Notes: a model not told the origin generated them from the sequence alone. A stretch of 64,000 nucleotides of DNA from an uncultured Acidimicrobiia bacterium (GCA_963714375.1 CAVQOG010000008.1:413171-477170), one strand, 5' to 3'. Shown: positions 6,448 to 50,996, counted from the first letter of the stretch. Numbers and translations: made by a program.

Positions 6448-8532
6448 ATGGCACGCACCATCCCACTCGAGACAATCCGCAATATCGGAATCATGGCCCA
6501 CATTGACGCGGGCAAGACGACGACGACTGAGCGAATTCTCTTCTATACGGGCCGCACCCACAAGATCGGTGAGGTTCATGAGGGCGCGGCCGTCATGGAC
6601 TGGATGGAGCAAGAACAAGAGCGCGGTATCACGATCACATCAGCGGCCACAACGACCGCATGGCACGGGCACACCATCAACATCATCGACACGCCTGGCC
6701 ACGTCGACTTCACCGTTGAGGTCGAGAGATCACTCCGCGTTCTCGACGGTGCCGTAGCTGTATTCGATGCCGTCTCTGGCGTTGAACCCCAGTCTGAGAC
6801 CGTTTGGCGTCAAGCTGACAAGTACGGTGTCCCGCGCATCTGTTTCATCAACAAGATGGATCGCATCGGTGCCGACTTTTTCGCAGCCAATCAGTCCATC
6901 ATCGATCGTCTCGGCGGAAACCCCGTTCCGATTCAGATTCCGATCGGGGCCGAGGCAGACTTCAAGGGTGTTGTCGACCTCGTCGAGATGAAGGCCTACT
7001 TGTGGCATGACGACGACGGTGTGAAGTGGGAAGACGCCGAGATTCCAACCGACCTGGTCGACCTGGCCAACGAGTGGCATCACAGGATGCTCGATGTCGT
7101 GGCAGCCGAGGATGAAGCCCTCATGGAGAAGTACCTCATGGAAGAGGAACTCACTCCAGACGAGATCCGATCCGTCATCCGCAAGGGAACGATCGATCGT
7201 GCCTTCGTCCCAGTGCTGTTGGGAACCGCCTTCAAGAACAAGGGTATCCAGCCGCTCCTTGACGCGGTCGTCGCCTACCTTCCGTCACCCGCTGACCTCC
7301 CACCAATGCAGGGATTCCGACCGGGACATGAAGAGGACATCAAGGAGCGTAAGGCGCTTGATTCGGAGCCGTTCTCCGCCCTCGCCTTCAAGATCATGTC
7401 TGATCCCTACGTCGGAAAGCTCACCTACTTCCGTGTCTATTCCGGGAGAGCGGACAAGGGCGATTCCGTTGTCAACACGACCAATGGCAAGAAGGAGCGC
7501 TTTGGACGTCTTCTGCGCATGCATGCTGCCAAGCAGGAAGATATCGACGAGATCATGACGGGTGACATTGTCGCAGCGGTCGGCCTCAAGAACACCAAGA
7601 CAGGTGACACGCTCTCAGCAACGAGTGACCTCGTGCAGCTCGAATCGATGACATTCCCCGATCCTGTGATCTCAGTGGCAATTGAGCCGAAGACCAAGTC
7701 CGACCAGGACAAGCTCGGAACAGGACTTGCGCGCCTCACCGAAGAGGATCCAACCTTCACCGTTCACAGCGACGACGAAACCGGCCAAACGATTATCGAA
7801 GGAATGGGGGAACTCCACCTCGAGGTCATCGTCGACAGGCTCTTCCGTGAGTTCAAGGTTGAGGCCAACGTCGGTCGTCCGCAGGTCGCCTATCGCGAGA
7901 CAATCAAGCGTCCGGTCAACAAGATCGATGCAAAGTTCAAGCGCCAAACCGGTGGTTCGGGAATGTACGGCCATGTCGTCATCGACCTTGAACCCCTCGA
8001 GCCGGGATCAGGTTTTGAGTTCGAGGATGCCGTCAAGGGCGGCAACGTTCCACGTGAGTACATCCCAGCTGTCGAAAAGGGCATGCGCGAGGCACTCGCC
8101 AGTGGCGTGCTCGCCGGGTATCCGCTCACGGACATCCGGGCTCGGCTCATCGATGGGTCGAGCCACAACGTCGACTCAAACGAAATGGCTTTCAAGATCG
8201 CAGGATCGATGGCGATCCAGTCAGCGGCAAAAGCCGCAGGCGTCAAACTCCTCGAACCCGTCATGTCCCTCGAGGTTGTGACACCTGAGGACTACATGGG
8301 TGATGTCATCGGAGACATCTCGTCACGTCGTGGCAAGGTCGAATCGATGGAGTCCCGAGGCGCAGCGAAGGTTGTCAACGCACTCGTCCCGCTCGCGGAG
8401 ATGTTCGGTTACGTAGGTGACCTGAGATCTCGTACGCAGGGCCGTGCGAACTACACGATGCAGTTCCACTCATACCAAGAAGTACCGACCCAGGCCGCAC
8501 AAGAAATCGTGGCCAAGGTCAGAGGCGAATAG
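6448..8532 (+). CDS. fusA: Elongation factor G
   Basis: [17 protein letters not shown] and NKMD G-domain motifs, 694 aa. Confidence 0.98.
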
Positions 8533-8542
8533 GAGATCCGTC

Positions 8543-9730
8543 ATGGCGAAGGAAAAGTTTGAGCGGTCGAAGCCGCATGTGAATATTGGCACGATGGGTC
8601 ATATTGATCATGGGAAGACGACGTTGACTGCGGCTATTACGAAGGTGTTGTCTGAGTCGGGTTCTGGTTCTGTGTTTACGGCGTTTGATGATATTGATAA
8701 GGCTCCTGAGGAGCGTGAGCGTGGGATTACGATTGCGATTTCTCATGTGGAGTATGAGACGGCGAATCGTCATTATGCCCATGTTGATATGCCGGGGCAT
8801 GCTGATTATGTCAAGAACATGATTACGGGTGCTGCTCAGGTTGATGGGGCGATTTTGGTGGTGTCTGCTGCTGATGGTCCAATGCCTCAGACTCGTGAGC
8901 ATGTGTTGTTGGCGCGTCAGGTTGGTGTGCCGGCTTTGGTTGTGTTTATGAACAAGGTTGATCAGGTTGATGATGATGAGTTGTTGGATTTGGTTGAGCT
9001 TGAGGTGAGGGATCTTCTCAATGAGTATGAGTTCCCTGGTGATGATATTCCTGTTGTTCGGGGTTCTGCTTTGAAGGCTTTGGAGGGTGATGAGGGGGCT
9101 GCGGCTCAGGTTGCTGAGTTGATGGATGCCGTTGATTCATATATTGAGGAGCCTGTTCGTGAGACGGATAAGCCCTTTGCGATGCCCATTGAGGATGTGT
9201 TTTCTATTACGGGTCGTGGCACTGTGGTGACGGGGCGTATTGAGCAGGGTGTTTTGAAGGTGGGGGATCACGTTGAGATTGTTGGTTTGCGTGATTTGCA
9301 GACAACGACGTGTACGGGTATTGAGATGTTCCGTAAGTTGTTGGATGAGGGTCGTGCGGGGGACAATGTTGGGCTTCTTCTCCGTGGTATTGGGAAGGAT
9401 GATGTGGAGCGTGGTCAGGTGGTCGCGGCTCCGGGTTCGATTACTCCTCATACGGTGTTTGAGGCCAATGTGTACATTTTGACCAAGGATGAGGGTGGGC
9501 GTCATAACCCGTTCTTTGATGGGTATCGTCCACAGTTTTATTTCCGTACCACGGATGTGACGGGTGCTGTGAAGTTGCCTGAAGGTACTGAGATGGTGAT
9601 GCCTGGTGATAACACTGAGATGACCGTGACGTTGGGTAAGCCCATTGCTATGGATGAGGGGCTGCGTTTTGCTATCCGTGAGGGTGGCCGCACGGTGGGT
9701 GCTGGCCGAGTAGTCAAGATCATCGAGTAA
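8543..9730 (+). CDS. tuf: Elongation factor Tu
   Basis: ATG at 8543 after an [31 protein letters not shown]. Confidence 0.98.
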
Positions 9731-9759
9731 CCAGTTATCGGGCCTACGGCTCACAAACG

Positions 9760-9787
9760 GCTGAAAGCTGAAAGCTGAAAGCTGTAA
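9760..9787. repeat. 7-bp array, 4 units, between tuf and rpsJ
   Basis: (gctgaaa)x3 gctgtaa. Confidence 0.85.
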
Positions 9788-9811
9788 GCAAACGAACGAA
9801 GAGAGTTTCAA

Positions 9812-10123
9812 ATGGCAGACGAGCATCGGATCCGGATCCGACTCAAGGCGTACGACCACTCGGTGGTTGATGAGTCGGCGAAGAAAATCGCGGAGACGGT
9901 GACGCGTACCCAGGCGAAGATCAAGGGGCCGGTTCCCCTTCCGACCCGCATCCATCGCTACACGGTCATCCGTGGACCACACGTTGACAAGACGTCTCGT
10001 GAGCACTTCGAAATGCGTATTCACAAGCGCCTCATCGACATCCTTGAACCAACCCCCAAGACAGTCGACTCGCTTATGCGTTTGGACCTTCCGGCTGGCG
10101 TGGAAGTAGAGATCAAGACATGA
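9812..10123 (+). CDS. rpsJ: 30S ribosomal protein S10
   Basis: [24 protein letters not shown]. Confidence 0.98.

Positions 10124-49346: not shown

Positions 49347-50996
<1,650 letters not shown>

Follow-up and report, generated by a model that had tools for sequence, protein, structure and literature searches.

Why is tuf, the gene for EF-Tu, written almost wholly in codons ending in G or T when the genes beside it are not? The question is raised by a stretch of 64,000 nucleotides (G000:C8:413171-477170, called the window in the following) from the genome of an uncultured Acidimicrobiia bacterium (G000), in which tuf stands between fusA and rpsJ in the str operon. The original prediction, made from the sequence alone, had noticed a sharply bounded composition at the third codon positions of this gene and had proposed that a second tuf exists and that repeated gene conversion between the two copies imposes the bias. 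As described below, the second copy was found, and we consider it probable that the entire pattern is explained by a strand-asymmetric conversion between the tuf twins that favours the keto bases G and T, with NucS/EndoMS as the most likely molecular cause. As far as our literature search reached, a strand-asymmetric, keto-biased drive of conversion that depends on NucS had not been backed by comparative evidence before.

The third positions of the 396 tuf codons comprise 9 A, 33 C, 169 G and 185 T, which gives 354 of 396 positions with G or T. The corresponding share (GT3, the fraction of third codon positions that are G or T) is 0.894, compared to 0.43-0.55 for the neighbouring genes rpoC, rpsG, fusA, rpsJ, rplC, rplD, rplW and rplB, and to a genome-wide mean of 0.475 (standard deviation 0.050; 3689 candidate open reading frames (ORFs); z = 8.4 for tuf). 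Nowhere else in the 64-kb window does the keto skew, taken in 300-nt windows, exceed 0.22. Of the two-fold pyrimidine codons of tuf, 86% end in T, compared to 35% for the genome on average; T makes up 47% and C 8% of its third positions, and the share of third positions with G or C (GC3) is 0.51 versus about 0.6-0.7 in the neighbours. The bias extends beyond third positions, as 20 of 27 Leu codons are TTG. In agreement with what had been read from the sequence, the shift sets in at the ATG, with one C-ending and likewise one A-ending codon among the first 52 as well as the first 78 codons of tuf and 23 C-ending codons among the first 52 of fusA, and the gene closes on the codons GGC CGA GTA GTC AAG ATC ATC GAG. 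The encoded EF-Tu is the ordinary protein that had been described, intact and conserved, and no compositional shift was seen at the protein level in G000. Independent metagenomes from rhizosphere, bioreactor and sludge contain G/T-rich tuf contigs of 94-99% identity that end at the gene borders, as is expected for a collapsed two-copy repeat. The recoding is thus real and not an artefact of assembly.

A whole-genome search located the second tuf at G000:C8:402128-403315, on the same strand, 19.6 kb upstream of the copy in the window (copy A) and 9.9-11 kb before the window starts. Its neighbours are a tRNA-Met gene upstream and rpmG (L33) downstream, the setting in which it had been predicted. 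Both copies were assembled with unique flanks on one contig, C8, and a base-by-base comparison found them identical at 1188 of 1188 nt. Near-identity had been anticipated up to about position 9705; it runs through the full coding sequence and 81 nt past the stop codon (Table 1). A megablast alignment of the two loci (C8:402127-403401 versus C8:421712-422986) covers 1275 bp at 99.92% identity. Downstream of both copies the same A-rich tandem heptad repeat is present, GCTGAAA three times followed by GCTGTAA (9762-9789 in the window). Similar borders were found for the tuf pairs of 32 other genomes, in which identity begins 0-10 nt upstream of the start codon and ends 0-109 nt past the stop codon; the identical 3′ flanks of these pairs are not G/T-rich either (keto fractions 0.30-0.58). 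Since the GC skew of C8 is positive from about 60 kb onward, both copies lie on the leading strand, co-directional with replication. Altogether, the two paralogs stand in different contexts (fusA-tuf-rpsJ and tRNA-Met-tuf-rpmG) and are closer to each other than to their orthologs, with 0 differences within G000 versus 51 synonymous differences to the nearest relative, G009. The latter pattern, which characterizes concerted evolution, was also present in 31 other genomes.

For a comparison beyond G000, tuf was gathered from about 70 genomes of the order and the phylum. Within the order, 31 of the 32 genomes whose two copies differ at no more than 23 positions have a GT3 of 0.71-0.995, the highest values being those of G167 (0.995), G059 (0.967) and G067 (0.954). 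Two genomes of the order with divergent copies (157 and 177 differences) lie at 0.45-0.51, and five single-copy genomes, closed or nearly so, at 0.42-0.51. The same dependence on duplicates holds elsewhere in the phylum; near-identical pairs of lineages with NucS range from 0.67 to 0.995 overall, and single or divergent copies from 0.39 to 0.51. An EF-Tu tree contains at least five contrasts within families (f1, f3, f14, f50 and f15/f20) between homogenised, biased copies and single or divergent, unbiased ones. Where the pair is inverted and lies on opposite replichores, both copies are still G/T-rich on their coding strand. Among the relatives the G:T ratio varies with the GC content of the host at a consistently high keto share. 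In a baseline of 80 diverse bacterial tuf genes, GT3 outside the Acidimicrobiia was 0.32-0.78; among these 80 loci and a further 30 from Rhodospirillales, no tuf outside the Actinomycetota exceeded 0.78, and only weak, partly polar excesses were seen. The bias is therefore order-wide and tied to the ongoing homogenisation of duplicates. The core of the original prediction, that conversion between duplicated tuf genes is the source of the bias, is borne out by these data, since biased copies occur only where two are kept near-identical; conversion alone is insufficient, however, as six actinobacterial genomes with identical pairs, all of them without NucS, are unbiased.

The bias is not uniform along the gene. 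Non-keto third positions in the four successive quarters of the G000 tuf number 5, 5, 10 and 21 (Mann-Whitney p = 2.7e-5), and the gradient persists when the last 15 codons are dropped (p = 0.007). Of the 42 non-keto third positions, 9 fall in these codons (382-396). Across 26 biased lineages, the GT3 of successive bins of 33 codons was 0.97, 0.96, 0.93, 0.97, 0.90, 0.97, 0.93, 0.88, 0.91, 0.86, 0.84 and 0.63; it falls to 0.37 in the penultimate five codons and to 0.28 in the final five, a value not above that of unbiased lineages. The bias thus starts at the 5′ border of homology, the ATG, and decays toward the 3′ end over the last 15-45 codons, and the last approximately 15 codons together with the 3′ flank are homogenised without being recoded. 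With respect to the original prediction this means that codon usage does become ordinary at the end of the gene, although the relaxation sets in earlier than the last 8 codons, and that the skew does coincide with the limit of homology at the 5′ side but not at the 3′ side, where identity runs on into an unrecoded flank.

The substitution spectrum points to the kind of process involved. Differences between G000 and relatives of its genus were counted per synonymous codon, with fusA, rpsJ and rplC as flanks. Transitions amount to 0.053 in tuf versus 0.22 in the flanks, C↔G changes to 0.025 versus 0.084, and A↔T changes to 0.004 versus 0.024. G↔T changes reach 0.113 in tuf; in the flanks, this mutation class (counted there as G↔T plus A↔C) stands at 0.075. 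Keto↔amino changes are hence suppressed 3-6 times in tuf, whereas G↔T exchange proceeds at 1.5-2 times the rate of the neutral class. This points to a fixation bias under which exchange within the keto class is about neutral and exchange between keto and amino bases is blocked. The original prediction had described a strand-asymmetric bias from C to T and from A to G; the bias is not simply of this form, as it separates keto from amino bases, leaves G and T free to exchange, and behaves as one of fixation and not of mutation. Non-synonymous sites are affected as well in the lineages where the drive is most extreme. In G167, the keto content of second codon positions is 0.558 versus 0.468±0.006, and EF-Tu contains 64 Val versus 43, 32 Arg versus 23.5, 9 Lys versus 17.7 and 15 Ile versus 24; taken together, Val, Gly, Arg and Leu are increased, and Lys, Ile, Thr and Glu decreased.

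Which factor, apart from homogenisation, decides whether a tuf pair becomes biased? G000 encodes a full-length NucS (NucS_N plus NucS_C, a 219-aa protein on contig C1), and no MutS_V hit was obtained in this genome. When 37 genomes were searched in six frames for NucS_C, the 14 that combine homogenised duplicates with NucS all had a GT3 of 0.67-0.995, while all seven with homogenised duplicates and no NucS hit had a GT3 of 0.36-0.55, without overlap. Six of the seven NucS-negative genomes are 95-100% complete, two of them closed, and the seventh, G030, is 85% complete. Within genus g21 (G030 and relatives), considered as a possible natural loss of NucS, the genomes are 72-85% complete, the tuf copies are frameshifted, and NucS hits do not track GT3. 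The unbiased pairs include those of G380, G508, G551, G434, G560 and G377, which belong to other classes, differ at 0-3 positions and have a GT3 of 0.36-0.46; other genomes of the phylum with homogenised pairs are intermediate (0.67-0.91). The separation spans 21 genomes from 16 families and is significant both by genome (Mann-Whitney p = 3e-4) and by family means (p = 2.5e-4, 10 families versus 6). In genomes with NucS and single or divergent copies, tuf is normal, with a maximum GT3 of 0.51. High GC content was considered as a reason for the unbiased pairs and discarded, given that G434 (GC3 0.53, no NucS) has a GT3 of 0.46, and G380 (GC3 0.87, no NucS) one of 0.40 versus 0.79 in G436 (GC3 0.84, with NucS). 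The comparison of the approximately 70 relatives shows a bias that would appear to need both ongoing homogenisation and NucS/EndoMS.

NucS/EndoMS is the mismatch enzyme of those Actinomycetota that lack MutS. When single-stranded DNA (ssDNA) was annealed to the lagging-strand template in Mycobacterium smegmatis, A-C, C-A, A-A, C-C, G-A and A-G mismatches were kept (PMC11551744), whereas G-T, G-G and T-T mismatches were almost wholly lost in a NucS-dependent manner, with a patch of about 6-9 nt (PMC11551744; also PMC11551767, PMC4838380). Measured against this specificity (PMC11551744), the changes blocked in tuf match the set G-T, G-G and T-T, and the allowed changes match the others. In the mechanism that we propose, two co-oriented tuf copies, both co-directional with replication, would be held identical by gene conversion, in the course of which a G or T allele on the coding strand would overwrite an A or C allele and never the reverse, with G and T exchanging freely. 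All variable sites would consequently drift to G or T, and in extreme relatives amino acids would change as well. NucS would remove solely G-T, G-G and T-T mismatches, in short patches, from the incoming strand; this donor strand is assumed to be the antisense strand, which for a gene co-directional with the fork corresponds to the polarity of the nascent lagging strand. A donor with T or G in its coding strand would then form A-x or C-x mismatches, which would escape repair and become fixed, whereas a donor with C or A would form G-T, G-G, T-G or T-T mismatches wherever the coding base of the recipient is G or T, and would be erased. The keto bases would thereby become an absorbing state with free G↔T exchange, in a process presumably anchored at the 5′ border of homology and weakening toward the 3′ end. 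Because both copies are co-directional with replication, keto enrichment is predicted on the lagging-strand template, which is the coding strand of tuf and thus the strand on which the bias is observed.

A number of observations weigh against this explanation. The NucS association is phylogenetically clumped, as most NucS-negative lineages belong to basal classes and the independent contrasts number about 2-4, and these lineages may differ in other repair genes. A possible counter-example is G291, with a GT3 of 0.81 and no NucS hit, in a genome that is 72% complete and belongs to a heterogeneous genus with frameshifted tuf copies. Among 30 Rhodospirillales, in which the GT3 of tuf ranges from 0.39 to 0.76, one genome without NucS, whose two tuf copies are identical, has a polar bias of lesser strength (GT3 0.76, declining from 0.90 to 0.41). 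Furthermore, no head-on duplicate occurs in the sample, in which the polarities of replication and transcription are not separable, the support is comparative, and the 3′ flank and last 15 codons, homogenised yet not recoded, are explained by the model solely through an assumption.

The clumping, the alphaproteobacterial pair and G291 all speak for a rival in which the keto-biased conversion is real but is caused by another lineage-specific factor that co-occurs with NucS, for instance by other mismatch or glycosylase activities, by the strand polarity of RecA, RuvAB or AdnAB, or, where MutS exists, by recognition of the MutS type. GRINS, a class of skewed duplicated regions to which we return below, have moreover been found associated with RuvA variants (PMC8256042). 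We regard such a factor as unlikely, though as a contender to be taken seriously. The split by NucS status is complete across the 21 genomes and 16 families, GC-matched pairs included; the blocked and allowed changes are exactly those of the NucS mismatch set, and the polarity fits the lagging-strand data (PMC11551744); and outside the Actinomycetota GT3 never rose above 0.78 in the two samples described. Since the NucS-less Rhodospirillales genome shows the polar pattern, a milder keto bias can also come about without NucS, perhaps through a graded preference of MutS for different mismatches.

Turning from conversion to mutation, the bias might be generated locally, either by deamination of ssDNA (C to T, A to G) on the exposed non-template or lagging-template strand of a highly transcribed gene, or by tautomerism or error-prone replication of the kind suggested for GRINS, the outcome then being spread by conversion. 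The skew does have the sign expected from ssDNA deamination of the coding strand, tuf belongs to the most highly transcribed genes, and a 5′-to-3′ gradient is typical of transcription-linked mutagenesis. An elevated rate of C-to-T and A-to-G mutation is nevertheless rejected by the spectrum, because at equilibrium it predicts as many or more transitions between relatives, and not the fourfold deficit seen in tuf. G is also favoured over C and T over A, neither of which follows from deamination. In addition, fusA in the same operon is normal, as are the single or divergent tuf genes of sister lineages, in which expression should be equally high, and the identical pairs of NucS-negative genomes are unbiased. 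A mutational origin is accordingly improbable.

Selection on the tuf message or its translation would likewise act on a single gene: G- and U-ending codons might be favoured in tuf by a weakly structured, nuclease-resistant or rapidly translated mRNA, in lineages that keep two copies for reasons of dosage. Consistent with this, the bias looks confined to coding sequence, as the homogenised 3′ non-coding flank is unrecoded, and concerted evolution is able to spread optimised codons (PMC6053082). The direction of the preference, however, is opposite to that of other highly expressed genes of the genome. The share of two-fold pyrimidine codons ending in T is 0.18-0.31 in fusA, rpoC and the ribosomal protein genes, which is below the genome mean of 0.35, and 0.86 in tuf; groEL (49347-50993) has C at 0.40 of its third positions, and rpoC, fusA and the ribosomal protein genes prefer C likewise. 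Expression-linked codon selection can therefore not explain tuf, which does not share its codons with these genes, a point that the original prediction had already made for rpoC, groEL and the ribosomal protein genes. Furthermore, neither the single-copy tuf genes of the same family nor the identical pairs of NucS-negative lineages show the bias, which declines within a single mRNA over its last 15-45 codons and in extreme lineages drags the amino-acid composition along. We judge selection of this type to be very improbable.

The original prediction's alternative, in-situ horizontal replacement from a donor with G/T-rich codons, can hardly be correct, nor can an artefact of sequencing or assembly. 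Composition does change sharply at the ATG, but the pattern is present in both copies, in dozens of relatives from many families and in independent metagenomes, the G:T ratio follows the host, EF-Tu groups with its family and is intact and conserved, and no donor-like tuf was found, the samples from outside the Actinomycetota containing none above a GT3 of 0.78.

Table 1. Features of the tuf locus in G000, in positions of the window
Feature	Position	Strand	Description
tuf copy A (EF-Tu, 395 aa + TAA)	8543..9730	+	ORF and translation; str-operon context fusA-tuf-rpsJ
G/T-recoded part of tuf, codons 1-381	8543..9685	+	about 92% G/T third positions, weakening 5′ to 3′
Last 15 tuf codons (382-396), inside the identical tract	9686..9730	+	ordinary C-preferring codons
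Tract identical to the second tuf locus (conversion tract)	8542..9811	+	begins 1 nt ahead of the ATG and reaches the start codon of the gene that follows
Identical 3′ non-coding flank	9731..9811	+	A-rich, keto fraction 0.42, unrecoded; GCTGAAA x3 heptad repeat
fusA, upstream gene, control	6448..8532	+	normal composition: C at 0.42 of third positions, GT3 0.43
rpsJ, downstream gene, control	9812..10123	+	normal composition

Other repeats and keto-rich genes of G000 were inspected as well. The genome contains few repeats. An exact 1442-bp direct repeat (G000:C8:663570-665011 and 670173-671614) encodes an IS110-like transposase of ordinary composition (GT3 0.45), so that a general effect of repeats was discarded, and the skew that the original prediction had proposed to look for in other repeats did not appear in this pair. 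Because an exact pair can thus have normal composition, recent duplication alone gives no bias. Additional keto-rich genes were observed elsewhere. An ORF at the start of contig C1 (C1:116-631) is recoded like tuf (GT3 0.87; 0.79 of two-fold pyrimidine codons ending in T; TTG share of Leu codons 0.79), and a downstream ORF (C1:2163-3011) is partly recoded (GT3 0.72); neither has a Pfam hit or a paralogous partner in the G000 assembly, and the contig-end position of the former suggests a repeat that assembly did not resolve. A region resembling a mobile element (G000:C1:179000-188000; relaxase, IS3-type transposase) holds several keto-skewed genes, among them one for a PG_binding_1 protein (C1:184050-185114, GT3 0.77) and an IS3 OrfA-like ORF (0.76), and the skew follows the gene strand. 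Histidine-kinase paralogs (C8:172441-173699, C7:9294-10554 and C7:11481-12635) are 79% and 100% identical and all keto-skewed (0.27-0.41), which makes them a candidate for a second GRINS-like system in G000. They are the only keto-rich genes besides tuf for which partners were found in the assembly. Contig C7 resembles an alternative version of C8:160.4-173.6 kb and is possibly a strain variant.

Further observations concern the tuf genes of the relatives. About half of the metagenome-assembled genomes (MAGs) of the order (e.g., G003-G005, G008 and G013-G016) contain no detectable tuf, and many others have it at a contig end; evidently, an exact two-copy repeat breaks short-read assemblies, with the result that a universal marker gene is systematically lost. 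Some second copies (G021; genus g21) carry an in-frame TGA or frameshifts and are either long-read assembly errors or decaying copies. EF-Tu of G167, from family f3, groups with f10 (G059, G067) and not with its f3 relatives, and fails a composition test, which probably reflects convergent amino-acid drift under the same drive.

The features of the tuf pair recall GRINS, duplicated regions of more than 500 bp and more than 80% identity with intense, correlated GC and TA skews, which are linked to gene conversion (PMC8256042; PNAS 2021). They are most prominent in Actinobacteria, particularly in polyketide synthase (PKS) genes of Streptomyces, and their mechanism was left open by the authors, who suggest tautomerism or error-prone replication, propose that the skew promotes conversion, and mention neither tuf nor NucS nor mismatch repair (PMC8256042). 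The later literature that we found citing GRINS concerns PKS and nonribosomal peptide synthetase assembly lines and not the mechanism. Besides length and identity, the published definition asks for a mean absolute GC skew and TA skew both above 0.15 (150-nt windows, step 30) and for correlation of the two. The tuf pair spans 1275 bp at 99.92% identity, the mean absolute skews of tuf are 0.365 (GC) and 0.255 (TA), and the skews are correlated with a Pearson r of 0.64 over 38 windows, compared to 0.70 for GRINS overall (PMC8256042); in the neighbouring genes, GC skew lies between -0.02 and 0.04 and TA skew between -0.05 and -0.17. By this definition the tuf pair is a GRINS, located in a universal housekeeping gene.

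Whether this can be generalized is, in our estimation, evenly balanced: repair of keto-keto mismatches by NucS on one strand may constitute a strand-asymmetric, keto-biased conversion drive throughout the Actinomycetota, be the engine behind GRINS and recode any paralog pair that is homogenised for long, with the capacity to change amino acids of EF-Tu (I to V, K to R, A to V, E to G) and to distort phylogenies. If true, this would be a second kind of biased gene conversion, keto-favouring and one-stranded, and would assign NucS a role beyond replication fidelity. GRINS matter for the evolution and engineering of polyketide synthases, and the tuf comparison turns their origin into a specific, falsifiable hypothesis. 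As a natural system for GRINS tuf is also the cleaner one, offering a single universal gene, two copies, and hundreds of lineages with or without the second copy and with or without NucS. On the practical side, tuf and other converted genes can mislead analyses of codon usage, horizontal gene transfer and phylogeny, as with the misplaced EF-Tu of G167, and tuf is often missing altogether from fragmented MAGs.

Concerted evolution of tufA and tufB by gene conversion is a classical case, reportedly established by Abdulkarim & Hughes 1996 and Lathe & Bork 2001. G000 resembles it in the gene contexts (str operon; tRNA-tuf-rpmG), in homogenisation bounded by the gene and in its long persistence across lineages. 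Concerted evolution of tuf has been recorded for Actinobacteria too, with no compositional effect reported (PMC6053082). In Salmonella, conversion starts uniformly along the gene and proceeds in both directions, with no compositional drive reported (PMC5485169), whereas the lineage of G000 shows a polar, strand-specific recoding to G and T. With GC-biased gene conversion (Lassalle et al. 2015, cited in PMC13061034) the tuf case shares the principle that a bias in heteroduplex repair acts like selection on composition and can fix slightly deleterious changes; that process, however, favours G and C on both strands, while in tuf, as its T-rich and C-poor third positions attest, G and T are favoured on one strand.

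Non-canonical mismatch repair by NucS/EndoMS, said to have been described by Castaneda-Garcia 2017, corresponds to the tuf case in its mismatch set, short patch, action at the lagging-strand template and taxonomic range. This repair pathway (Ishino 2016, PMC4838380; PMC11551744; PMC11551767) is known for the correction of replication errors and for anti-recombination, while the tuf case would imply that it also shapes converted paralogs. A hint in this direction comes from a preprint on Mycobacterium tuberculosis, according to which recombination-linked repair asymmetries involving NucS might reshape paralog composition (PMC13061034). The closest relatives of the tuf pair are the GRINS themselves, being duplicated, G+T-rich coding DNA that is linked to conversion and still encodes functional proteins. 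They differ from it in that they are known from PKS modules, transposases and repair genes and not from tuf or any translation gene, and in that both skew signs occur within 1 kb in PKS genes, whereas tuf has a uniform sign with a 5′-to-3′ decay. Finally, the authors of the GRINS study propose that skew promotes conversion; the tuf data point the opposite way, toward conversion plus NucS as the producers of the skew.

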